A stretch of DNA of 64,000 nt from a phage: the sequence record PZ452578.1. One strand, 5' to 3'. A program made the position numbers and the translations under genes. This document shows, one piece after another, positions 1,933 to 43,205 of this stretch (the first letter of the stretch is position 1; every line of letters starts with the position of its first letter). Below the pieces are notes generated by a model, which saw nothing but the letters and a program-made list of their open reading frames with translations, did not search any database and had not been told where the DNA came from.

Positions 1933-2240
1933 TATTTACCAATAAATTGGAGCAAATGCTCAACTTTCATACCATTAACGGAAATCAATTTGTCAATAGA
2001 AAAACCTCGCCATGCACCAAGCTCAACATCAAATACTGGAATCATGTCAGTAGATTCTTTCCGAGTAGATTCAGTCAATTTGCCAGTTTGCATGGTTGGC
2101 ATAAAGTCCGCGTCGCGAGTACCTTTCATAACACGAATAGTACCGTCAGACTTTTCAAAAACTACGTTTGAAACACCCATGGACAATTTAGTTTTCAAAA
2201 TTTCACGAATTGCTACTTTCTGCTCAGTTGTCAGTTTCAT
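1932..2240 (-). CDS. hypothetical protein (102 aa)
   Basis: Track ORF between gene 31 and cd, same strand, compact spacing. Confidence 0.45.
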   Translation of the reverse strand: MKLTTEQKVAIREILKTKLSMGVSNVVFEKSDGTIRVMKGTRDADFMPTMQTGKLTESTRKESTDMIPVFDVELGAWRGFSIDKLISVNGMKVEHLLQFIGK

Positions 2241-2244
2241 TTAT

Positions 2245-2484
2245 TTACCATTTACCTATTACAGTTTTAATATGAGTTGTTCCACGTTCTTTAAGGGTGG
2301 AAAGTAATTTTTGGCATTTTTCTAAATCAGATTTCCAACTATATGGTTTATCAATACAAACCCAATTTGTCTTATAATACTGTTTCCATTTAGAGAAAAA
2401 ATATTTCTTATACTCTACAGCAAACGAGATGTTCTCATTAGAATAAGAACTAATTGCTGTGAGCTTTACCAAACGAAATTTCAT
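2245..2484 (-). CDS. hypothetical protein (79 aa)
   Basis: Track ORF abutting cd start; start codon may be an alternative start. Confidence 0.4.
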   Translation of the reverse strand: MKFRLVKLTAISSYSNENISFAVEYKKYFFSKWKQYYKTNWVCIDKPYSWKSDLEKCQKLLSTLKERGTTHIKTVIGKW

Positions 2485-3065
2485 TATTCACCGCAGAATT
2501 CGTTGATATTTTCCCAGTTTAACTTATTCAAGTTTTTCTTAGGAACATTAAACACTTCAATACCTGCATTTCGCAGAATATCATCCCAGCCAGGTTTATT
2601 TTTATCATATGTTTCGCAATAAACCAGCTTTTTAATACCCGATTGAGCTATCGCTTTTGCACAATCTGGACAAGGAGAAAGTGTTACATACATAGTAGCA
2701 CCTTCAATAGAAGAACCATTTCGTGCAGCAAACAAAATTGCATTTAGCTCAGCATGAATTTCATTTTTAGACGACCATTCAGAGTGAGCGCTGCGGTGTT
2801 CTTTCGCCAAGACAAAACGATCAGTTGAACTAAATGATACACATTCGGGCTTATGACCTTGGATGATAGTATGTTTAGGTTTATTTAGCAACCAACCTTG
2901 CTCAGCAGCATAATCACAACAGTTCACACCCCCTGCGGGGGAACCATTATACCCAGTAGAAATAATACGTCCATTCTTTTCAATTACTGCTCCTACCTTC
3001 CAGGAGCAACATTTGGATTCTTGTGATACTAAATATGCAATTTGAAGTACTGTACTCGCTTTCAT
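2484..3065 (-). CDS. cd: dCMP deaminase (193 aa)
   Basis: Zinc-dependent deaminase motifs HAE and PCxxC (SPCPDCAKAI); 193 aa as T4 Cd. Confidence 0.9.
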   Translation of the reverse strand: MKASTVLQIAYLVSQESKCCSWKVGAVIEKNGRIISTGYNGSPAGGVNCCDYAAEQGWLLNKPKHTIIQGHKPECVSFSSTDRFVLAKEHRSAHSEWSSKNEIHAELNAILFAARNGSSIEGATMYVTLSPCPDCAKAIAQSGIKKLVYCETYDKNKPGWDDILRNAGIEVFNVPKKNLNKLNWENINEFCGE

Positions 3066-3400
3066 TTCATAATCACCAGATAAGCAGATTTAGCAGTTTC
3101 AACACGATAAATTTCGTGACGAAGTTTAGTTATACTTTTAATAACAGAACTAATTATATTCTGCCCATCTTTAAAGCGGTTTTTCTTATCAATAAAAACT
3201 GCGCCAACCATCTTTTTGTGAAGCTCAACTGGATACTTCGTCACAATAATAGCATCATACACAGAAGGATGAATACTATTCACCAGAGTATCATTCATTA
3301 AAGTTATTCTAATGAACTGTGCTGTTTCAGAATCAAGCGCTCTATGATCGCCAGTATCATTTTCAAGACAATTATCAATTATATCAGTTAAATTCATCAT
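3062..3400 (-). CDS. hypothetical protein (112 aa)
   Basis: Track ORF, start overlaps upstream gene stop (coupled arrangement). Confidence 0.45.
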   Translation of the reverse strand: MMNLTDIIDNCLENDTGDHRALDSETAQFIRITLMNDTLVNSIHPSVYDAIIVTKYPVELHKKMVGAVFIDKKNRFKDGQNIISSVIKSITKLRHEIYRVETAKSAYLVIMK

Positions 3401-3636
3401 AGTACGCCATACACCCTTTGTGCTTCAACTAATCCATCAAAATCCAGTTTAAGATGCGATATTTGATCGCCATCACCTGGATTTACAATTACTAATACTG
3501 AACGAGGAGTTTCGGTAATAACACGAACCGATGTTTCAGGAAATCGTTCAGAAACCTTATTTACTAATTCCTGTGCAAATAGTTTAACTTTTTCTTGGAA
3601 TTCTTTAACAGTAATTGGTTTTTCACTTAGTAGCAT
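3397..3636 (-). CDS. hypothetical protein (79 aa)
   Basis: Track ORF in overlapping gene chain. Confidence 0.45.
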   Translation of the reverse strand: MLLSEKPITVKEFQEKVKLFAQELVNKVSERFPETSVRVITETPRSVLVIVNPGDGDQISHLKLDFDGLVEAQRVYGVL

Positions 3637-4157
3637 GTTGATCCAAGCTCCTTACTTTCAACGTTTTTAACTAATTTGACAGAAACTAATTCAGCATCTT
3701 GAGTAATCATTACCGGGCCTTCTTCATACTCTTCAAGATATTCTAGAGCTTTCTTTTTAGCTTCTTCCTTCGTATCAGTTTGAGCATAGATATAGAACAT
3801 ACAACCAGTAATACCTACTACTTTCCACTTAATTTCTTTATCAGTTTTAATTTCAAATTTACTTACAGAATCATCTTTTTGAACTTCTTCGAAAAAAGAA
3901 TATTCTAACATATAAGCAATTGAAAATAGCGGGCTAACTTTATAGGATTCACCCATTACATCAACAGCTTTATACCAACAATCATCAATTTCGCGTTTAA
4001 TGCTAATAACATTTTTCGCAGGATCTATTTTTACTTTAAATGAATTTTCCCCAATAAACTGGGCAATTCGTTTATTAGCCCCGCAAGTTTCATTAAAAAT
4101 ATCTTTATATCCAGCTTTAAAGCGATAAACCTTATCTTCTTCAAACCATTCGCTCAT
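3627..4157 (-). CDS. hypothetical protein (176 aa)
   Basis: Track ORF, no recognised motif. Confidence 0.5.
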   Translation of the reverse strand: MSEWFEEDKVYRFKAGYKDIFNETCGANKRIAQFIGENSFKVKIDPAKNVISIKREIDDCWYKAVDVMGESYKVSPLFSIAYMLEYSFFEEVQKDDSVSKFEIKTDKEIKWKVVGITGCMFYIYAQTDTKEEAKKKALEYLEEYEEGPVMITQDAELVSVKLVKNVESKELGSTCY

Positions 4158-4219
4158 TTCAATTTCCTCATTTGTTTTGGTAGAGCTATAATATCATAAC
4201 TCTACCGTAAAGTAAACTA

Positions 4220-4525
4220 TTAAATCGCTTTAAATTCTGACGTCTGTGATTTAAAGCGAATGTCGCCTTTGATAACTAGCTCAGCATCAAGACCAAATAC
4301 AACAATGATATGCGCGGAACCTGGATACAGCGTAATGGCAACAGAATCCACCTGGTCTGGAAGCAAAGTGTTCAATACATGAGTCACTTGAGCATGGATT
4401 CGAAGCTCAGCTGCGTTATCAAGTTTTTCAAACATATTATTAGCGATAATTTGGCTAAACACTACTTCTACGATTTTAGAATAAGTCGGAAACATATTTA
4501 CCTCACATAATTTTCTTCGAGCCAA
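4220..4525 (-). CDS. hypothetical protein (101 aa)
   Basis: Track ORF upstream of pseT. Confidence 0.45.
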   Translation of the reverse strand: MARRKLCEVNMFPTYSKIVEVVFSQIIANNMFEKLDNAAELRIHAQVTHVLNTLLPDQVDSVAITLYPGSAHIIVVFGLDAELVIKGDIRFKSQTSEFKAI

Positions 4526-4558
4526 TTAATAATACCCAAGTTTCATGGTGCAAAGCCA

Positions 4559-5759
<1,201 letters not shown>

Positions 5760-19982: not shown

Positions 19983-22900
19983 ATGGCCGAGATTAAAAGA
20001 AAGTTCAGAGCAGAAGATGGTCTGGACGCAGGTGGCGATAAAATAATCAACGTAGCTTTAGCTGATCGTGCCGTAGGAACTGACGGTGTTAACGTTGATT
20101 ACTTAATTCAAGAAAACACAGTTCAACAATACGATCCAACTCGTGGATATTTAAAAGATTTTGTAATCATTTATGATAACCGCTTTTGGGCTGCTATAAA
20201 TGATATTCCAAAACCAGCAGGAGCTTTTAATAGCGTACGCTGGAGAGCGTTACGTACTGATGCAAACTGGACAACTGTTTCATCAGGACCTTATCAATTA
20301 AAATCGGGTGAATCAATTTCAGTTGATACTGCAGCTGGTAATGACATTACATTTACTTTACCATCTACCCCAATTGACGGTGATACTATCGTTCTCCAAG
20401 ATATTGGAGGAAAACCTGGAGTTAATCAAGTTTTAATTACAGCTCCGGTACAAAGCATTGTAAATTTTAGAGGTCAGCAAGTACGTTCAGTACTAATGAC
20501 TCATCCAAAATCACAGATAGTTTTAATTTTTAGTAATCGTCTGTGGCAAATGTATGTCGCTGATTATAGTAGAGAAGCTGTAGTTGTAACGCCTGCGAGT
20601 CTCTATCAGGCTCAATCAAACGATTTTATCGTACGTAGATTTACTTCTGCTTCAGCAATTAATATTAAACTTCCAAGATTTGCCAATCATGGCGATATTA
20701 TTAATTTCGTTGATTTGGATAAATTAAATCCTCTTTATCACACAATTGTTACTACATATGATGAAACAACTTCAGTACAAGAAGTTGGAACTCATTCCAT
20801 TGAAGGTCGTACATCGATTGACGGTTTCTTGATGTTTGATGATAATGAGAAATTGTGGAGATTGTTTGACGGGGATAGTAAAGCACGTTTACGCATTATA
20901 ACAACTAATTCTAATATTCGTCCAAATGAAGAAGTCATGGTATTTGGCGCGAATAATGGAACAACCCAAACAATTGAACTTCAGCTTCCGACTGATATTT
21001 CTGTTGGTGATACTGTCAAAATTTCCATGAATTACATGAGAAAAGGACAAACGGTTAAAATCAAAGCTGCAGGTGAAGATAAAATTGCTTCTTCAGTTCA
21101 ATTGCTGCAATTCCCAAAACGCTCAGAATATCCACTTGAAGCTGAGTGGGTTACAGTTCAAGAATTAGTTTTTAACGGTGAAACTAATTATGTTCCAGTT
21201 TTGGAGCTTGCTTATATTGAAGATTCTGATGGAAAATATTGGGTTGTACAGCAAAACGTTCCAACTGTAGAAAGAGTAGATTCTTTAAATGATTCTACTA
21301 GAGCAAGATTAGGGGTAATTGCTTTAGCTACACAAGCTCAAGCTAATGCTGATTTAGAAAATTCTCCACAAAAAGAATTGGCAATTACTCCAGAAACGTT
21401 AGCTAATCGTACTGCTACAGAAACTCGTAGAGGTATTGCAAGAATAGCAACTACTGCTCAAGTTAACCAGGATACTACATTCTCTTTTGCTGATGATATT
21501 ATCATCACTCCTAAAAAGCTGAATGAAAGAACAGCTACTGAAACTCGCAGAGGTGTTGCTGAAATTGCTACACAGCAAGAAACTAATACAGGAACCGATG
21601 ATACTACAATCATCACTCCTAAAAAGCTTCAAGCTCGACAAGGTTCTGAATCATTATCTGGTATTGTAACTTTTGTATCTACTGCAGGTGCTACTCCAGC
21701 TTCTAGCCGTGAATTAAATGGTACGAATGTTTATAATAAAAACACTAATAATTTAGTTGTTTCACCTAAAGCTTTGGATCAGTATAAAGCTACTCCAACA
21801 CAGCAAGGTGCAGTAATTTTAGCAGTTGAAAGTGAAGTAATTGCTGGACAAAGTCAGGAAGGATGGGCAAATGCGGTTGTAACGCCAGAAACGTTACATA
21901 AAAAGACATCAACTGATGGAAGAATTGGTTTAATTGAAATTGCTACGCAAAGTGAAGTTAATACAGGAACTGATTATACTCGTGCAGTCACTCCTAAAAC
22001 TTTAAATGACCGTAGAGCAACTGAAAGTTTAAGTGGTATAGCTGAAATTGCTACGCAAGTTGAATTCGACGCAGGCGTCGACGATACTCGTATCTCTACA
22101 CCATTAAAAATTAAAACCAGATTTAATAGTACTGATCGTACTTCTGTTGTTGCTCTATCTGGATTAGTTGAATCAGGAACTCTCTGGGACCATTATACCC
22201 TTAATATTCTTGAAGCAAACGAGACACAACGTGGTACACTTCGTGTAGCTACACAGGTCGAAGCTGCTGCAGGAACATTAGATAATGTTTTAATAACTCC
22301 TAAAAAGCTTTTAGGTACTAAATCTACTGAAGCGCAAGAAGGTGTTATTAAAGTTGCAACTCAGTCTGAAACTGTGACTGGAACGTCAACAAATACTGCT
22401 GTATCTCCAAAAAATTTAAAATGGATTGTGCAGAGTGAACCTACTTGGGCAGCAACTACTCTGATAAGAGGTTTTGTTAAAACTTCATCTGGTTCAATTA
22501 CATTCGTTGGTAATGATACGGTAGGTTCAACACAGCCATTAGAATCATATGAGAAAAATAGCTATGCAGTATCACCATATGAATTAAACCGTGTATTAGC
22601 AAATTATCTGCCGTTAAAAGCAAAAGCTGTAGATAGTAATTTATTGGATGGTCTAGATTCATCTCAGTTCATTCGTAGGGATATTGCACAGACGGTTAAT
22701 GGTTCACTAACCTTAACCCAACAAACGAATCTGAGTGCCCCTCTTGTATCATCTAGTACTGCTACGTTTGGTGGTTCAGTTACGGCAAATAGTGTACTAA
22801 CTATTTCTAATACTGGAACAGAAACTCATCTGATTTTTGAGAAAGGACCTCAAACTGGAACTAACCAAGCACAGACGGTGACTATTAGAGTGTGGGGTAA

Positions 22901-23852
22901 TCAATTTAGTGGGGAATCAGATACAACACGTTCTACTGTATTTGAAGTTGGTGATGAAACGTCTAATCACTTTTATTCTCAGCGCAATAAAGCTGGAAAT
23001 ATAACATTTAATATCAATGGTACAGTAACACCTATAAATGTTAATGCTTCAGGAACATTGAATGCAAATGGTGTAGCAACATTTGGTAATTCAGTCACTG
23101 CAACTGGTGAAATTATTTCTCGAAGCGCAAATGCTTTCCGTGCTATTAACGGAAATTATGGTTTCATTGTTCGCAATGATGGATCAGTAACGAATTTTAT
23201 GCTTACTGCATCGGGTGATCAGACTGGTGGATTTAATGGATTACGTCCTTTAGCTATTAATAATGCATCTGGCCAAGTAACGATTGGCGAAAGCTTAATT
23301 ATTGCCAAAGGTGCTACTATAAATTCAGGCGGTTTAACTGTTAACTCGAGAATTCGTTCTCATGGTACTAAAACATCTGATTTATACACCCGCGCGCCAA
23401 CATCTGATACTGTAGGATTCTGGTCAATCGATATTAATGATTCAGCTACTTATAACCAGTTCCCAGGTTATTTTAAGATGGTTGAAAAAACTAATGAAGT
23501 GACTGGACTTCCATACTTAGAACGTGGCGAAGAGGTTAAATCTCCTGGTACATTGACTCAGTTTGGTAACACACTTGATTCGCTTTACCAAGATTGGATT
23601 ACTTATCCAACTACCCCAGAAGCACGCACCACTCGCTGGACACGTACATGGCAGAAAACCAAAAATTCTTGGTCAAGTTTTGTTCAGGTATTTGATGGGG
23701 GTAACCCTCCTCAGCCATCTGATATTGGTGCTTTACCATCTGATAATGCTATAATGGGGAATCTTACTATTCGTGATTTCTTACGAATTGGTAATGTTCG
23801 CATTATTCCTGACCCAGTGAATAAAACGGTTAAATTTGAATGGGTTGAATAA
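19983..23852 (+). CDS. 34: long tail fibre proximal subunit gp34 (1289 aa)
   Basis: 1289 aa as T4 gp34; late promoter TATAAATA 19941-19948; internal approx 40-aa repeats. Confidence 0.9.
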   Translation: MAEIKRKFRAEDGLDAGGDKIINVALADRAVGTDGVNVDYLIQENTVQQYDPTRGYLKDFVIIYDNRFWAAINDIPKPAGAFNSVRWRALRTDANWTTVSSGPYQLKSGESISVDTAAGNDITFTLPSTPIDGDTIVLQDIGGKPGVNQVLITAPVQSIVNFRGQQVRSVLMTHPKSQIVLIFSNRLWQMYVADYSREAVVVTPASLYQAQSNDFIVRRFTSASAINIKLPRFANHGDIINFVDLDKLNPLYHTIVTTYDETTSVQEVGTHSIEGRTSIDGFLMFDDNEKLWRLFDGDSKARLRIITTNSNIRPNEEVMVFGANNGTTQTIELQLPTDISVGDTVKISMNYMRKGQTVKIKAAGEDKIASSVQLLQFPKRSEYPLEAEWVTVQELVFNGETNYVPVLELAYIEDSDGKYWVVQQNVPTVERVDSLNDSTRARLGVIALATQAQANADLENSPQKELAITPETLANRTATETRRGIARIATTAQVNQDTTFSFADDIIITPKKLNERTATETRRGVAEIATQQETNTGTDDTTIITPKKLQARQGSESLSGIVTFVSTAGATPASSRELNGTNVYNKNTNNLVVSPKALDQYKATPTQQGAVILAVESEVIAGQSQEGWANAVVTPETLHKKTSTDGRIGLIEIATQSEVNTGTDYTRAVTPKTLNDRRATESLSGIAEIATQVEFDAGVDDTRISTPLKIKTRFNSTDRTSVVALSGLVESGTLWDHYTLNILEANETQRGTLRVATQVEAAAGTLDNVLITPKKLLGTKSTEAQEGVIKVATQSETVTGTSTNTAVSPKNLKWIVQSEPTWAATTLIRGFVKTSSGSITFVGNDTVGSTQPLESYEKNSYAVSPYELNRVLANYLPLKAKAVDSNLLDGLDSSQFIRRDIAQTVNGSLTLTQQTNLSAPLVSSSTATFGGSVTANSVLTISNTGTETHLIFEKGPQTGTNQAQTVTIRVWGNQFSGESDTTRSTVFEVGDETSNHFYSQRNKAGNITFNINGTVTPINVNASGTLNANGVATFGNSVTATGEIISRSANAFRAINGNYGFIVRNDGSVTNFMLTASGDQTGGFNGLRPLAINNASGQVTIGESLIIAKGATINSGGLTVNSRIRSHGTKTSDLYTRAPTSDTVGFWSIDINDSATYNQFPGYFKMVEKTNEVTGLPYLERGEEVKSPGTLTQFGNTLDSLYQDWITYPTTPEARTTRWTRTWQKTKNSWSSFVQVFDGGNPPQPSDIGALPSDNAIMGNLTIRDFLRIGNVRIIPDPVNKTVKFEWVE
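21291..22430 (+). repeat. tandem approx 40-codon repeats within gene 34
   Basis: About nine copies of TxxRRG(I/V)AxIATQxExNTGTDDTxxITPKKL-like units. Confidence 0.6.
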
Positions 23853-23860
23853 GAGGTATT

Positions 23861-24976
23861 ATGGAAAAATTTATGGCAAAGTTTGGACAAGGATATGTCC
23901 AAACGCCATTTTTATCGGAAAGTAATTCAGTAAGATATAAAATAAGCATAGCGGGTTCTTGCCCGCTTTCTACAGCAGGACCATATGTCAAATTTCAGGA
24001 TAATCCTATTGGAAGTCAAACATTTAGCACAGGACTTCATTTAAGAGTTTTTGACCCTTCTACAGGAGCATTAGTTGATAGTAAGTCATATGCTTTTTCG
24101 ACTTCAAATGATACTACATCAGCTGCTTTTGTTAGTTTCATGAATTCTTTTTCAAACAACAGACTTGTTGCTATATTAACAAGTGGAAAGGTTAATTTTC
24201 CTCCTGAGGTAGTATCTTGGCTAAGATCCGCGGGAACGTCTGCTTTTCCATCTGATTCTATATTGTCAAGATTTGACGTATCATATGCTGCCTTTTATAC
24301 TTCTTCTAAAAGAGCTATTGCATTAGAACATGTTAAACTAAGTAATAGAAAAAGCACAGATGATTATCAAACTATTTTAGATGTTGTATTTGATAGTTTA
24401 GAAGACGTTGGAGCTACCGGGTTTCCAAGAAGAACGTATGAAAGCGTTGAGCAATTTATGTCAGCGGTTGGTGGAACTAATAACGAAATTGCACGTTTAC
24501 CAACTTCATCCGCGATAAGTAAATTATCTGATTATAATTTAATTCCTGGCGATGTTCTTTATCTTAAAGCGCAGCTATATGCTGATGCCGATTTACTTGC
24601 GCTTGGAACTACAAATATATCTATCCGTTTTTATGATGAATCGAATGGATATATTTCTTCAACACATGCTGAGTTTACTGGACAAGCTGAGTCATGGGAA
24701 TTAAAGGAAGACTATGTAGTTGTTCCTGAAAATGCAGTAGGATTTACGATATATGCACAAAGAACTGCACAAGCAGGTCAAGGTGGCATGAGGAATTTAA
24801 GTTTTTCTGAAGTATCAAGAAATGGCGGAATTTCAAAACCTGCAGAATTTGGCGTCAATGGTATTCGAGTTAATTATGTCTGTGAATCTGCTTCACCTCC
24901 AGATATAATGGTACTTCCTACACAAGCATCGTCTAAAACTGGTAAAGTGTTTGGACAAGAATTTAGAGAAGTTTAA
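23861..24976 (+). CDS. 35: long tail fibre hinge protein gp35 (371 aa)
   Basis: Length and position after gene 34; terminator 24981-25007 follows. Confidence 0.85.
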   Translation: MEKFMAKFGQGYVQTPFLSESNSVRYKISIAGSCPLSTAGPYVKFQDNPIGSQTFSTGLHLRVFDPSTGALVDSKSYAFSTSNDTTSAAFVSFMNSFSNNRLVAILTSGKVNFPPEVVSWLRSAGTSAFPSDSILSRFDVSYAAFYTSSKRAIALEHVKLSNRKSTDDYQTILDVVFDSLEDVGATGFPRRTYESVEQFMSAVGGTNNEIARLPTSSAISKLSDYNLIPGDVLYLKAQLYADADLLALGTTNISIRFYDESNGYISSTHAEFTGQAESWELKEDYVVVPENAVGFTIYAQRTAQAGQGGMRNLSFSEVSRNGGISKPAEFGVNGIRVNYVCESASPPDIMVLPTQASSKTGKVFGQEFREV

Positions 24977-25038: not shown

Positions 25039-25695
25039 ATGGCTGATTTAAAAGTAGGTTCAACAACCGGAGGCTCTGTCATTTGGCATCAAGGAAATTT
25101 TCCATTGAATCCAGCCGGTGACGATGTACTCTATAAATCATTTAAAATATATTCAGAATATAACAAACCGCAGGCTGCTGATAACGATTTTGTTTCTAAA
25201 GCTAATGGTGGTACTTATTTAAATAAAGTAATTTTTAATAAAGGAATGACTGTTCCTGGCGCAGGGTCAGGCGATAATGGTATTTTTGCTGGTCCTGGTG
25301 ATAGTGCCACGTATGATACTACAAATATGGATATTGTTTCGTGGTATGGTATTGGTTTTAAATCATCACAAGGAACAGCAGGTAGAACTGTAGTAATTAA
25401 CACACGAAATGGAGATATTAGCTCAAAGGGCGTAATTGAAGCATCACAAATCCGTGTAACTTCGTTATCACCAGTAAATAATTATGACCTTACGCGGAAA
25501 GATTATGTTGATGGAGCAATAAATATTGTTACAGCAAACGCAAACTCTAGGGTATTACGCTCTGGAGACACTATGACAGGAAATTTAACTGCGCCAAACC
25601 TTTTTTCACAGAATCCTGCATCTCAACCCTCACATGTTCCACGATTTGATCAAATTGTTATTAAGGATTCTGTTCAAGATTTCGGCTATTATTAA
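25039..25695 (+). CDS. 36: long tail fibre distal connector gp36 (218 aa)
   Basis: N-terminus MADLKVGSTTGGSVIWHQGNF as T4 gp36; late promoter 25008-25015. Confidence 0.85.
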   Translation: MADLKVGSTTGGSVIWHQGNFPLNPAGDDVLYKSFKIYSEYNKPQAADNDFVSKANGGTYLNKVIFNKGMTVPGAGSGDNGIFAGPGDSATYDTTNMDIVSWYGIGFKSSQGTAGRTVVINTRNGDISSKGVIEASQIRVTSLSPVNNYDLTRKDYVDGAINIVTANANSRVLRSGDTMTGNLTAPNLFSQNPASQPSHVPRFDQIVIKDSVQDFGYY

Positions 25696-25703
25696 GAGGA
25701 CTT

Positions 25704-28700
25704 ATGGCTACTTTAAAACAAATACAATTTAAAAGAAGCAAAACTGCAGGAGCACGTCCTGCCGCTTCAGTATTAGCCGAAGGTGAATTGGCTATAAACT
25801 TAAAAGACCGTGTACTTTTTACTAAAGATGACCAAGGAAATATTATTGATTTAGGTTTTGCTAAAGGCGGTAGCATTGACGGGAATGTTATTCATAAAGG
25901 CAATTATAACCAAACTGGTGATTATACTTTAAATGGCACATTCACTCAGACAGGTAATTTTAATTTAACTGGTATTGCTCGAGTAACTCGTGATATTATT
26001 GCCGCCGGGCAGATTATGACTGAAGGCGGAGAACTTATTACAAAAAGTTCAGGTACAGCGCATGTTCGTTTTTTCGATGGCAATAGTCGCGAACGTGGAA
26101 TCATTTATGCCCCGGCTAATGACGGTTTAACTACACAAGTACTTAATATCAGGGTTCAAGACTATGCCGCTGGTAGCGAAAGCACTTATGCATTTTCAGG
26201 CAGTGGCCTATTTACTTCACCTGAAGTATCAGCATGGAAATCTATTTCGTCTCCACAAATTCTGACCGACAAAGTCATTACAGACGGGAAGAAGGCAGGC
26301 GATTATGACATCTATTCATTAGCAAATAACACCCCATTATCTGAAAGCACTACTGCTATTAATCATCTTCGTGTCATGCGTAATGCAGTCGGTTCTGGTA
26401 TTTTCCATGAAGTTAAAGATAATGATGGGATAACCTGGTATGCCGGTGACGGGTTGGAGGCTTATCTTTGGTCGTTTACGTGGTCCGGTGGGTTGAAAGC
26501 GGGTCATTCTATTTCTATAGGTACCCCAGGCGGTCCAAAAGGATATTCTGAATTAGGAACGGCCTCAATTGTTCTTGGGGATAATGATACCGGATTTAAA
26601 TGGCATCAGGACGGATATTATTTCAGCGTTAATAATGGAACAAAAACGTTTTTATTTAGTCCCAGCGAAACAACTAGCCTAAGAAAATTTGTAGCTGGAT
26701 ATTCTACTAATGGAACCGATTTAACTACTCCTCCAACTGAAAATTATGCTCTTGCTACTGTCGTGACATATCACGATAATAACGCGTTTGGAGATGGCCA
26801 GACTCTTTTAGGATATTATCAAGGCGGTAATTATCATCATTATTTCCGCGGTAAGGGTACCACAAACATTAATACTCATGGCGGTTTGTTAGTTACTCCA
26901 GGTAATATTGATGTTATTGGCGGTTCTGTTAATATTGATGGTATAAATAATGCTTCTACCCTGCTATTTAGAGGCAACACAACTGGTAGTAGTTCAGTTG
27001 ATAATATGACAATTTCCGTTTGGGGCAATACGTTTACTAATCCTAGTGTAGGTAATCGTAAAAACGTCATGGAAATTTCTGATGCAACTAGTTGGATGAG
27101 CTATATTCAAAGACTTACAACAGGTGAAGTAGAAATGAACGTTAATGGTTCATTTGAATCATCTGGTGTTACTGCTGGAAATAGAGGAGTTCACACAACA
27201 GGCGAAATTTCATCTGGTGCAGTGAATGCGCTTCGCATTTGGAATGCAGATTATGGAGCCATTTTTAGACGTTCAGAAGGTAGTCTTCATATTATTCCAA
27301 CTGCTTACGGTGAAGGTAAACACGGCGATATCGGTCCACTTCGCCCATTTAGTATGGCTTTAGATACTGGTAAAGTTACTATTCCAGATTTACAATCAAG
27401 TTACAATACGTTCGCTGCTAACGGTTATATTAAATTTGTTGGTCATGGAGCGGGTGCCGGCGGTTATGACATTCAATATGTTCAAGCGGCTCCTATTTTC
27501 CAGGAAATCGATGATGATGCTGTAAGCAAATATTATCCTATTGTTAAACAGAAGTTTCTAAACGGTAAATCCGTTTGGTCTTTAGGTACTGAAATTAATT
27601 CAGGTACATTCGTTATTCATCATCTGAAAGAAGATGGTTCACAAGGCCATACGTCTCGTTTTAATCAAGACGGTACTGTTAACTTCCCAGATAACGTTCA
27701 GGTCGGCGGCGGTGAAGCTACTATTGCTCGTAATGGTAATATTTTCTCAGATATTTGGAAACCGTTTACTTCTGCCGGTGATACTACAAATATTCGCGAT
27801 GCTATTGCGACTCGTGTTTCGAAAGAAGGCGACACGATGACCGGTAAGTTGATTATTAGAAGAGATTCTGACGCTATTAACTTAGCTGCGCCTTCGACAA
27901 CTGATGCAAGTTACCTTCTTTCTACAGGAGCTGGTGAAAATCTATGGTATATTGGTAAAGGCGGCGCTGATAATACTGTATCATTCTACAACTATAAAAC
28001 CAGTGGGGCTGTGCAAATTAACTCTATTGGTGAAATCGCGCTGATTCCACAAGGTGCTGCAACATTTAACTTCAACCGCGATCGTCTCTATATAAATGGG
28101 TCTCAATGGACTGCACATCAAGCTGGTGACTGGGTTAACCAATGGCGTCAAGAAGCTCCTATATTTGTGGATTTTGGTAGTGTCGGCAATGACTGCTATT
28201 ATCCTATTATTAAAGGAAAATCTGTTATTACGAATGAAGGATACGTATCTGGTGTTGATTTCGGTATGCGCCGTATCACTAACCAATGGGCTCAGGCTAT
28301 TATTCGTGTTGGTAACCAGGAAAATGCTAGCGATCCGCAAGCTATCTTCGAATTCCACCATAATGGAAACATGTACGTTCCTGACATGGTTAAAGCTGGA
28401 GTAAGATTATCAGCTGGTGGAGGTGACCCTGCATGGACAGGCGCATGTGTTGTTATTGGTGATAATGACACTGGGTTAGTTCATGGCGGTGACGGTCGTA
28501 TTAACATGGTTGCAAATGGAGTGCATATTGCTTCATGGTCGGCCGCTTACCATCTCCATGAAGGTCTTTGGGATACCACTGGTGCTTTGTGGACTGAACA
28601 AGGAAGAGCTATTATTTCTTTTGGTCATTTAGTCCAACAAAGCGATGCCTATTCCACATTTGTCCGCGATGTTTATGTCCGTTCTGATATTCGTGTTAAA

Positions 28701-29018
28701 AAAGACCTTGTTAAATTTGAAAATGCTTCTGAGAAGCTTTCTAAAATTAACGGTTACACTTATATGCAGAAGCGAGGCCTAGATGAAGAAGGCAATCAGA
28801 AATGGGAACCTAACGCCGGTTTGATAGCTCAAGAAGTTCAAGCTATTTTGCCTGAATTAGTTGAAGGTGACCCTGATGGCGAAGCTTTACTTCGTTTGAA
28901 CTATAACGGTGTAATTGGTTTAAATACAGCTGCAATCAATGAGCATACTGCAGAAATTGCGGAACTTAAATCAGAAATTGAAGAACTTAAAGCATTAGTT
29001 AAATCATTGTTAAAATAA
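25704..29018 (+). CDS. 37: long tail fibre distal subunit gp37 (1104 aa) with C-terminal intramolecular-chaperone-like domain
   Basis: N-terminus [13 protein letters not shown] as T4 gp37; C-terminal SDIRVKK...coiled-coil segment. Confidence 0.9.
28644..29018 (+). other. C-terminal intramolecular-chaperone-like (autoproteolytic) domain of gp37
   Basis: SDIRVKKDL motif around 28683 followed by conserved region and terminal coiled coil. Confidence 0.5.
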
Positions 29019-29023
29019 TAAGA

Positions 29024-29037
29024 GGGGCTTCGGCCCC
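29024..29037 (+). other. stable stem-loop (GGGGC-UUCG-GCCCC) between genes 37 and 38
   Basis: Perfect 5-bp GC stem with UUCG loop, no U-run, just 5' of gene 38 SD. Confidence 0.5.
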
Positions 29038-29049
29038 TTGGAGGTTTAT

Positions 29050-29826
29050 ATGGCAGTAACAGGACCGTGGGTAGGATCGTCTGCAGTAGTTAATACAGGA
29101 CAAAATTGGATGGGTGGCGCGGCCCAACGATTAAGAATGGGTGCTCCATTTTGGATGAGTAATATGATAGGTCGATCTGTTGAAATAATTCACACGCTTG
29201 GAGCAGACCATAACTTCAATGGTCAATGGTTCCGAGATAGATGTTTTGAGGCAGGTAGTGCACCTATAGTGTTTAATATCACTGGAGATTTAGTATCATA
29301 TTCTAAAGATGTTCCTTTATTCTTCATGTATGGAGATACACCGAATGAATATGTTCAGTTGAATATACACGGCGTAACGATGTATGGACGTGGCGGTAAT
29401 GGCGGTAGCAATAGTCCTGGTTCAGCTGGGGGTCATTGTATTCAAAATGATATTGGTGGGAGACTAAGAATTAATAATGGCGGAGCTATTGCTGGAGGTG
29501 GCGGTGGCGGCGGCGGCGGATATTATTCTCCTTTTTCACGAATGAGATTGACTTTTGGCGGGGGCGGCGGGCGTCCGTTTGGCGCACCGGGCGGATCTAT
29601 TGATATGCAATCAGGAGCAACTGCTGGTACTATTTCTGCGCCTGGCGCAGGGTCTGTGAACGGTATCTATAGCGGCGGTGGCGGTGGCGAAGTTGGCTCC
29701 GCAGGAGGTAGATGTAATATTCGTGGTCAAGGATCTGAATACGACGGCGGAGCTGCTGGTTATGCCGTCATAGGGTCTACACCGACATGGCAAAACGTTG
29801 GAGCAATATATGGTCCAAGAGTATAA
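29050..29826 (+). CDS. 38: gp38 receptor-binding adhesin, T2/T6 type with glycine-rich motifs (258 aa)
   Basis: ATG 29050 with GGAGG SD (track start 29038 is TTG); poly-Gly blocks separating variable segments. Confidence 0.8.
29390..29790 (+). repeat. glycine-rich motifs of gp38 separated by short variable segments
   Basis: Runs [34 protein letters not shown]. Confidence 0.6.
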
Positions 29827-29856
29827 TTTGAATAAATATCCTTAAAAGGAGGGTCT

Positions 29857-30513
29857 ATGGCAGCACCTAGAATATCATTTTCGCCCTCTGATATTCTGTT
29901 GGGTGTTCTAGATCGCTTGTTCAAAGATAACGCTACCGGGAAGGTTCTTGCTTCCCGAGTAGCTGTCGTAATTCTTTTATTTATGATGGCGATTGTTTGG
30001 TATAGGGGAGATAGTTTCTTTGAGTACTATAAGCAATCAAAGTATGAAACATACAGTGAAATTATTGAAAAGGAAAGAAATGCACGCTTTGAATCTGTCG
30101 CCCTGGAACAACTCCAGATAGTTCATATATCATCTGAGGCAGACTTTAGTGCGGTGTATTCTTTCCGCCCTAAAAACTTAAACTATTTTGTTGATATTAT
30201 AGCATACGAAGGAAAATTACCTTCAACAATAAGTGAAAAATCACTTGGAGGATATCCTGTTGATAAAACTATGGATGAATATACAGTTCATTTAAATGGA
30301 CGTCATTATTATTCCAACTCAAAATTTGCTTTTTTACCAACTAAAAAGCCTACTCCCGAAATAAACTACATGTACAGTTGTCCATATTTTAATTTGGATA
30401 ATATCTATGCTGGAACGATAACCATGTACTGGTATAGAAATGATCATATAAGTAATGACCGCCTTGAATCAATATGTGCTCAGGCGGCCAGAATATTAGG
30501 AAGGGCTAAATAA
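29857..30513 (+). CDS. t: holin T (218 aa)
   Basis: N-terminus MAAPRISFSPSDILLGVLDRLF and single TM segment as T4 holin; AAGGAGGG SD. Confidence 0.9.
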   Translation: MAAPRISFSPSDILLGVLDRLFKDNATGKVLASRVAVVILLFMMAIVWYRGDSFFEYYKQSKYETYSEIIEKERNARFESVALEQLQIVHISSEADFSAVYSFRPKNLNYFVDIIAYEGKLPSTISEKSLGGYPVDKTMDEYTVHLNGRHYYSNSKFAFLPTKKPTPEINYMYSCPYFNLDNIYAGTITMYWYRNDHISNDRLESICAQAARILGRAK

Positions 30514-41355: not shown

Positions 41356-41385
41356 ATTATACCACATCCTTGTGGTAAAGTAAAC
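41356..41385 (-). promoter_or_regulatory. T4-type early promoter upstream of rIIA.1
   Basis: GTTTAC and TATAAT. Confidence 0.45.
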
Positions 41386-43205
41386 TACTGGCTCATCCAT
41401 TCTTTACGAAGGTCAGCATTATCTCCCATGAGCATTTCAAAAAGCTCTTTCCAGTTCTCAGGAAGTTTAACAACATCATATACTGGATTTTGAATCATCT
41501 CACGATATTCAGATTTTTCCAAAGAGCCAAGTCCCTTAATATAACGGATACTATGTTTAGGTAGAGCATCTTTAGCACTCTCATATTCAGCGACTGTATA
41601 AAACCATTCTTGTTTTTTACCGACCTGAGCGATGATTACAGGAGTTTTGACAAAGCGAATTCGTCCTTGCTCAAACAATTCTGGCCAATTACTAAAAAAT
41701 CCGAGCAGAGAAGGATAAATGCTTCCTAAACCATCATGGTCAGCATCAGTCATAATAGCAATATTATGATAATTCAAGTTTTCAGCTTTTTCACCTAGAA
41801 CTAAACCCGTGATTGCGCAAATATCAAACAGTTCTTTGTTTTTAAGCATATCAGCATATGACATACCCCAACTGTTGAGAACTTTACCACGCAATGGATA
41901 ACCACCATGAAGTTCTTTATCACGAACATCAATAAGATATCCGATAGCAGAATCACCCTCAGTCAAGAAAAGAGTAGTGTCAGCATCTTTACCACAAAGA
42001 TTCGCTTTAATATGTTTATGAACCTTAGCTTTAGAAGCCTTTTTAGCTGCTTTAGTTTCTGCTGCTTTTTCTGCTGCCAATTTACGAGCTAATGCTGCTT
42101 CAATAATTGGCATCAAAATTGCTTCATTATTTAGAATAGCGCGTGAAATCTTTTTAGCATCAAGTTGAATATGACTACGGATTTCACCAAATGGAGAAGT
42201 CAAACGCTCTTTAGTTTGAGAATCAAATCGCATGTTTTTCATATCACGAACAAACATAACGATAGTCAAACATTCTTTGACACGTGCTTTAGTTACATCA
42301 ATTTTGAACTTACGTTTGATTTGTGGAATAAGGTCTTCACAAATATCATCCATAACACAGTCAATGTGATGGCCACCATTCTTAGTGTGAATGTTATTCA
42401 CATAAGTTAATTGACGAAATCCATCCGGTGAACGACCAACCGCAATAGAACAATTTTCTTGTTCTTGAACAATAGCATGTTCATCATACTGTCGTGCATA
42501 TTTCTTAAAATTGCCCTGAACCTTTTTACCATTAAAGGTAAATTGAATATCAGGATAAACAACAGCAAGTGTCTGGAGACGATCCAGTGTAATGTCAAGA
42601 TAAACTTGGGACAGCTCATTAGTTTCAAATGACATAAAATCAGGAATGAAAGTAACACGAGTTCCTTTCCATTTTCCAGGAATATCTTCCCATGATTTAT
42701 TTTCCATGCCATTTGAACAACGAACTACAATATTATTTTGACCATCACCAGTTTCACCGACAAACATCACAGAAAAAATGTTTGTCAAACTAGAACCAAC
42801 ACCATTCATACCACCGGTGACGCGTTCTTTATCATCACCGAAGTTACCACCTGCTTTTGGAATAGTCCACGCAGCAACAGGACCAGGAATTTCTTCACCT
42901 GTAGGTGTTTTAACCATCGCCTGTGGAATACCGCGACCGTTATCTTCAACTGTTACCTGATTATTTTTAATAGTAACATTAATTTTATTTGCGAATTTAA
43001 ACTTAGTACGAATACCTTCATCTACTGAGTTATCAATAATTTCATCAATAAGCTTAACAAGACCAGGTACATACTGAACACTTTCCCATTTACCAAACAG
43101 AAAGCGCTCATGCATTTCATTAGCAGAAGAGCCAATATACATGCCGCTACGCTTTTTGATATGTTCAATATCGCTCAGAATTTTAATTTCATTCTTAATC
43201 ATCAC
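41385..43205 (-). CDS. 39: DNA topoisomerase II large subunit, unsplit gp39 (606 aa)
   Basis: Continuous 606-aa GyrB-like ORF covering what T4 encodes as genes 39 plus 60. Confidence 0.9.
   Translation of the reverse strand: MMIKNEIKILSDIEHIKKRSGMYIGSSANEMHERFLFGKWESVQYVPGLVKLIDEIIDNSVDEGIRTKFKFANKINVTIKNNQVTVEDNGRGIPQAMVKTPTGEEIPGPVAAWTIPKAGGNFGDDKERVTGGMNGVGSSLTNIFSVMFVGETGDGQNNIVVRCSNGMENKSWEDIPGKWKGTRVTFIPDFMSFETNELSQVYLDITLDRLQTLAVVYPDIQFTFNGKKVQGNFKKYARQYDEHAIVQEQENCSIAVGRSPDGFRQLTYVNNIHTKNGGHHIDCVMDDICEDLIPQIKRKFKIDVTKARVKECLTIVMFVRDMKNMRFDSQTKERLTSPFGEIRSHIQLDAKKISRAILNNEAILMPIIEAALARKLAAEKAAETKAAKKASKAKVHKHIKANLCGKDADTTLFLTEGDSAIGYLIDVRDKELHGGYPLRGKVLNSWGMSYADMLKNKELFDICAITGLVLGEKAENLNYHNIAIMTDADHDGLGSIYPSLLGFFSNWPELFEQGRIRFVKTPVIIAQVGKKQEWFYTVAEYESAKDALPKHSIRYIKGLGSLEKSEYREMIQNPVYDVVKLPENWKELFEMLMGDNADLRKEWMSQ

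Follow-up and report, generated by a model that had tools for sequence, protein, structure and literature searches.

The distal subunit of the long tail fibre encoded in this phage DNA, gp37, ends in an intramolecular chaperone domain of the Peptidase S74 family, which retains the catalytic residues and the predicted fold of the family, occupies the C-terminal position in the protein and is accompanied by a cognate gp38 adhesin. We consider it very likely that this domain, residues 994–1104, folds the trimeric fibre tip and then cuts itself off at R993^S994 (^ denotes the scissile bond throughout), opening the site for gp38. The analysis thus lends support to a first-pass annotation, made from the DNA letters, that had proposed a self-cleaving chaperone on gp37.

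The long tail fibre block

The window, that is, the whole 64-kb stretch of DNA that was analysed, holds a T-even (Tequatrovirus) long-tail-fibre block, in which the gene order 34-35-36-37-38-t-asiA is the same as in the annotation of phage RB27:

19983–23852: gene 34
23861–24976: gene 35
25039–25695: gene 36
25704–29018, plus strand: gene 37, long tail fibre distal subunit precursor, an open reading frame (ORF) of 1104 aa with a calculated mass of 119.0 kDa
29050–29826, plus strand: gene 38, T2/T6-type tail fibre adhesin, 258 aa, glycine-rich, the predicted partner docking on the cleaved gp37 tip
29857–30513: holin gene t, followed by asiA and further genes

Over its full length, gp37 matches phrog_1699, 'long tail fiber protein distal subunit' (E=0), and the gene is equal in length to the annotated gene 37 of RB27, to which positions 28000–29900 (the 3' end of gene 37, gene 38 and the start of t) are 98.5% identical at the nucleotide level. 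Across 24.5 kb, the window is about 96% identical to its best match among public phage records, which makes it an ordinary relative of the deposited genomes and not a copy of one.

Residues 450–550 of gp37 (window 27051–27353) match Pfam Gp34_trimer (32.7 bits against a cut-off of 27), and residues 920–1158 of gp34 (window 22740–23456) match the gp37 PHROG (E=3.3e-34), so the proximal and distal half-fibres have a module in common. Farther along, the large subunit of topoisomerase II (41385–43205, minus strand) is a single ORF of 606 aa that spans both phrog_543 and phrog_7229, the latter at residues 453–606. Gene 39 therefore appears here in the unsplit form, presumably lacking, by comparison with T4, the gene 39/gene 60 split of the T4 type. 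A tRNA scan of the 64-kb window yielded no tRNA genes, and no Rfam family reached the gathering threshold in it.

The S74 domain of gp37 and its relatives

The first-pass annotation placed a chaperone-like domain of roughly 120 residues at 28644–29018, an interval that corresponds to gp37 residues 981–1104 plus the stop codon and contains the sequence it had quoted, and proposed an HHpred/Pfam search of residues 980–1104. A Pfam search with the 124-aa C-terminal piece detected Peptidase_S74 (PF13884, 'chaperone of endosialidase') at 54.1 bits (E=1.9e-14), and with whole gp37 as the query at 48.5 bits (E=1.1e-12), exceeding the curated gathering score of 22 bits. The match extends over gp37 residues 994–1053 and profile positions 1–57 of 58, with Ser994 in the first position. 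The domain is thus present but, at 111 aa from S994 (nt 28683), shorter than had been estimated, and the 13 residues that open the flagged interval are part of the mature fibre tip instead. The features of this region are as follows:

28668–28682, plus strand: end of the predicted mature gp37, D989-V-Y-V-R993, from homology with S16, the fPS phages and T2
Between nt 28682 and 28683, plus strand: predicted scissile bond R993^S994, positioned by homology
28683–29015, plus strand: C-terminal intramolecular chaperone domain (Peptidase_S74), S994–K1104, 111 aa, 12.3 kDa
28683–28685, plus strand: Ser994 codon (tct), predicted nucleophile, residue 1 of the domain and position 1 of the Pfam profile, equivalent to T5 Ser1264
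28698–28700, plus strand: Lys999 codon (aaa), predicted general base at Ser +5, from the T5 Ser1264/Lys1269 spacing
28818–28838, plus strand: G1039-L-I-A-Q-E-V motif, the most conserved core of the domain in the alignment of relatives
28902–29012, plus strand: terminal long helix of the AlphaFold2 (AF2) model, residues 1067–1103, with a heptad repeat, a predicted trimeric coiled coil

Among solved structures, the closest relative by sequence is the gp37 construct of Salmonella phage S16 (PDB 6F45_A; E=1.4e-38 over 152 residues), in which SDRRIKKD is aligned with SDIRVKKD of the present gp37. A single-sequence phmmer search against the PDB matched 6F45, 7DC3 and 8JOV, and no others. A profile built from a small alignment matched the MyRF ICA domain (7DC3; 2.2e-11) and the tail fibre 8JOV (6.9e-10), and additionally 8HQZ (L-shaped tail fibre) and 3GUD (GA-1 neck appendage chaperone); 3GW6 and 4UW8, unmatched by this profile search against the PDB, were reached via fold comparison. 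Searched exhaustively, 1.84 billion cluster representatives yielded 16,493 matches at E≤0.001, and tblastn found the domain in 1,471 phage records, including T5-like phages (about 41–43% identity) and gene 37 of phage T2. These resemblances are far above chance, and gp37 residues 994–1104 are a member of the Peptidase S74 family. A search of the six-frame translation of the whole window with the domain HMM revealed no second copy.

A protein homologue search with the 124-aa piece gave 13 matches, each of at most 210 aa. One of them can be traced to contig ABESBY010000008.1 of NCBI assembly GCA_021537435.1, which is labelled 'Escherichia coli' although the 167-kb contig is a T-even phage genome. 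Gene 37 of this contig is an intact ORF of 1101 aa (positions 2208–5513 of our locus L003), of which the recorded gene comprises the last 170 aa alone ('tail fiber domain-containing protein'), from an internal Met start. Owing to this artefact of annotation, the chaperone domain wrongly seems to be a stand-alone protein, and the other proteins of 170–183 aa from the same search may be similar artefacts.

Conserved residues and predicted fold

The junction in gp37 reads DVYVR993^S994DIRVKK, and S994-D-I-R-V-K999 has the Ser/Lys(+5) arrangement of the family. Conservation was counted among relatives from the exhaustive cluster-representative search. The Ser-Asp pair that had been singled out as conserved proved to be so, with Ser994 a serine in 162 of 164 aligned relatives and the following Asp kept in all 164; Lys999 is likewise a lysine in 164/164. 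Farther into the domain, G1039, A1042 and Q1043 are kept in 165–166 of 166 relatives and P1050 in all 166, and these columns are invariant in the small profile alignment. In gp37, the domain extends to the final residue of the distal subunit, and among the 173 matched domains of relatives, 137 end at most 15 aa from the protein C-terminus.

Upstream of the junction, at 6 and 5 residues from S994, R988 and D989 are common to gp37 here and S16; D989 is the commonest residue among relatives (92 of the 113 with a residue there), and position 988 is N, R or H. In T5 pb1, the residues that sense folding are Arg1250 of the adjacent chain, Asp1239 and Thr1263 (PMC4690869); the pLDDT of our tip model, below 50, is too low to set R988 and D989 as their equivalents.

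An AF2 monomer model of residues 933–1104 (172 aa) has a pLDDT of about 90 over 994–1104 and below 50 in the preceding tip, as would be expected of a chain that can fold only as an intertwined trimer. The modelled domain consists of two short helices, a beta-hairpin (1017–1040), a further short helix and a 37-residue terminal helix (residues 135–171 of the construct, gp37 1067–1103), in which the heptad a positions are Ile or Val (1071, 1078, 1085, 1092 and 1099) and the d positions Leu (1088, 1095 and 1102). The model contains the parts of the S74 fold: a small alpha/beta portion with a beta-hairpin, and a C-terminal helix predicted to form a trimeric coiled coil. The first-pass annotation had described a short helical region followed by a terminal coiled coil, for which the model shows short helices and the terminal helix, and left the hairpin unmentioned; the likeness it saw to the chaperone domains of endosialidase and the T5 L-shaped fibre is borne out by the Pfam score and by the fold. 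In Foldseek, 7DC3 was the sole match with E≤0.001, and in fold comparison four solved family members match.

The gp38 partner and the gene 37–gene 38 junction

Gene 38 encodes a protein with clear matches to Pfam GP38 (E=9.6e-71) and Gp38_N (E=2e-21) and, in the PDB, to 6F45_D (E=3.3e-52, matched from residue 1) and 9V85 (E=1.6e-80). Its W7, W20 and W35 align with tryptophans of S16 gp38, which in that phage are described as N-terminal prongs inserting into the gp37 tip (PMC7917993), where gp38 is reported to be physically bound on the cleaved gp37 (PMC7917993, PMC12892980). Judged from these sequence matches, gp37 and gp38 here are the predicted components of a T2/T6/S16-type fibre tip, in which a processed gp37 trimer is capped by gp38.

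Gene 37 terminates in tandem stops, TAATAA (29016–29021), immediately 3' of which lies a tetraloop hairpin, GAGGGGC-UUCG-GCCCCUU (29022–29039); the 56-nt fold of this region has an energy of -17.8 kcal/mol and a z of -2.95. The hairpin adjoins the gene 38 Shine-Dalgarno sequence GGAGG (29040–29044), ahead of ATG 29050, which is the gene 38 start in the RB27 annotation; the mechanical ORF list gives TTG 29038, within the hairpin. The hairpin may act on the gene 37 message, as a 3' stabiliser or terminator, or may modulate gp38 translation.

Proposed mechanism and alternatives

From the homologues, we infer a chaperone role, a cleavage with its timing and exact bond, and the docking of gp38, which would proceed as follows. 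The terminal coiled coil, together with the rest of the domain, would bring three gp37 chains into register, and the domain would nucleate the folding of the trimeric tip, starting C-terminally. When the tip is correctly folded, Ser994, activated by Lys999, would attack the R993–S994 bond in each chain, releasing the 12.3-kDa domain and leaving a mature gp37 that ends at R993, with a calculated mass of 106.7 kDa. The new C-terminus (...DVYVR993) would form a flat trimeric platform, on which one gp38 would dock through its tryptophan-bearing N-terminal attachment domain. Autoproteolytic release is reported for the S16, T5 and K1F homologues (PMC7917993, PMC4690869, PMC7289586). In T5 pb1, Ser1264 is responsible for self-cleavage and Lys1269 activates it, and an Arg from the neighbouring chain makes correct folding of the trimer a precondition of cleavage (PMC4690869). 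In K1F, too, an Arg of the adjacent chain is placed beside the scissile bond. S16 gp37 is reported to lose its last 113 residues by autocleavage at DLNVS^SDRRIKK once the trimer has formed, which exposes the docking surface for gp38 (PMC7917993, PMC7289586).

Cleavage of the present gp37 is a prediction, and 24 of the 173 matched domains of relatives are separated by more than 50 residues from the protein C-terminus, so that some copies are not simple terminal leaving groups. Both points would suit a domain that stays on the virion for good, capping the fibre as a trimerisation or coiled-coil element, with gp38 attached elsewhere. We nevertheless regard a retained cap as very improbable because none of the Ser, Asp and Lys(+5) residues has been lost and the N-terminal docking domain of gp38 is conserved with that of S16, which is reported to bind the surface that cleavage exposes; in S16 and T2/T6, moreover, the homologous proteins are reported to be cleaved.

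If the C-terminal piece is removed, the cut might be made not by the domain itself but by a separate protease, of the phage or the host, and the T2/T6 gp37 is described, in the account given in PMC3157838, simply as 'proteolytically cleaved', with the protease unnamed there. Against this stand the T5 pb1 equivalent, in which the Ser-to-Ala substitution S1264A leaves the recombinant protein uncleaved in E. coli (PMC4690869), the description of S16 gp37 as autocleaved (PMC7917993, PMC7289586) and the near-invariance of the Ser-Lys pair among relatives (162/164 and 164/164), such that cleavage by another enzyme seems hardly probable and self-cleavage is the reading we retain. There is also the question of whether a generic amphipathic or coiled-coil C-terminus could mimic the family, given that the protein closes with a low-complexity heptad helix of 37 residues and that this helix elicits a weak match to DivIC (E=0.035, under the cut-off). 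The Pfam match (994–1053), however, lies upstream of the coiled coil and scores more than twice the gathering value, and four solved family members match in fold, which excludes a chance match; with the 6F45_A (E=1.4e-38) and profile matches added, the probability that we assign to chance resemblance is negligible.

Possible module exchange and significance

Across the 1,471 phage records, identity to the domain is bimodal, with 179 records at 95% or higher, 62 at 60–90% and 1,230 below 60%; between 95% and 80% there are almost none. Together with the conserved VY(I/V)R^SDIR(L/V)K junction, this distribution is consistent with swapping of whole gp37-tip/gp38 modules. It is conceivable, but in our estimate improbable, that the chaperone and the gp38 attachment domain form a co-adapted cassette, with the near-invariant (V/I)Y(V/I)R^SDIR junction as the recombination boundary at which T-even phages would exchange entire adhesin modules, or else that the released 12-kDa trimer has a role of its own. 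The bimodal identity and the 37% identity to T2 (see below) fit the cassette idea; a post-cleavage role of the released trimer is speculation. Modular shuffling of gp37 and gp38 has already been published, and the cassette idea largely repeats it (PMC3157838, PMC7917993).

The domain family, the way in which it works and the part it plays in T-even fibres of the gp38 type have all been published. The same inference has appeared in print for near-identical junctions, and there is experimental precedent in S16 and T2; our finding leaves current understanding unaltered. Its use is practical: for annotation, it sets the end of mature gp37 (predicted R993, 106.7 kDa), and for engineering, it names the 111 residues to be retained in recombinant or chimeric fibres for tip folding and gp38 docking.

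Comparison with known systems

The S16 gp37, known from the PDB 6F45 construct (Dunne et al. 2018, as cited in PMC7917993 and PMC7289586), is, like the present protein, a T-even gp37 of the gp38-adhesin type with the domain at the equivalent place. The junctions align as V-x^SD-x-R-x-KKD, and the gp38 attachment domains are homologous, with conserved tryptophans. S16 has Ser before the scissile bond (DLNVS^S), whereas Arg is found here (DVYVR^S), and the S16 chaperone is reported to comprise 113 residues (PMC7917993) compared to 111. The alignment of the two proteins shows visibly greater divergence in the adjoining upstream part, the mature tip, than in the chaperone domain.

In T2, also a Tequatrovirus with the same gene 37–gene 38 arrangement, the junction NVYIR^SDIRLK is near-identical to DVYVR^SDIRVK, but the aligned C-terminal segments of gp37 (about 134 aa here) are only 37% identical, as compared between the 3' end of T2 gene 37 (our locus L002, 299–697) and window positions 28614–29015, and the T2 terminal helix is much shorter. 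The two C-termini are different subtypes of the same module, that of the present gp37 being of the RB27/UP19/HY01 type. The C-terminus of T2/T6 gp37 is reported to be proteolytically processed before capping by gp38 (Drexler, Riede and Henning 1986, cited in PMC3157838). In the fPS phages, T4-like Yersinia phages that also belong to Tequatrovirus, cleavage of gp37 is predicted at DVYIR^SDGRLKI, opening the gp38 site (PMC7917993); this motif is almost the same as DVYVR^SDIRVKK, where cleavage is predicted as well.

The C-terminal intramolecular chaperone of the K1F endosialidase endoNF (PDB 3GW6), the founding peptidase S74 member, is 14% identical to the domain described here, and it serves a tailspike whose stalk is a triple beta-helix, in contrast to a fibre tip to which an adhesin is later added as a cap. 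The domain of T5 pb1 is longer (residues 1263–1396) than the 111 residues here and carries 50-Angstrom tentacles, and the tip of pb1 itself binds the receptor after cleavage, with no separate adhesin added. The MyRF ICA domain (PDB 7DC3) is a eukaryotic member of the family. MyRF is a membrane-bound transcription factor of animals, in which cleavage sets free a fragment that is the transcription factor, and no virion fibre is matured.
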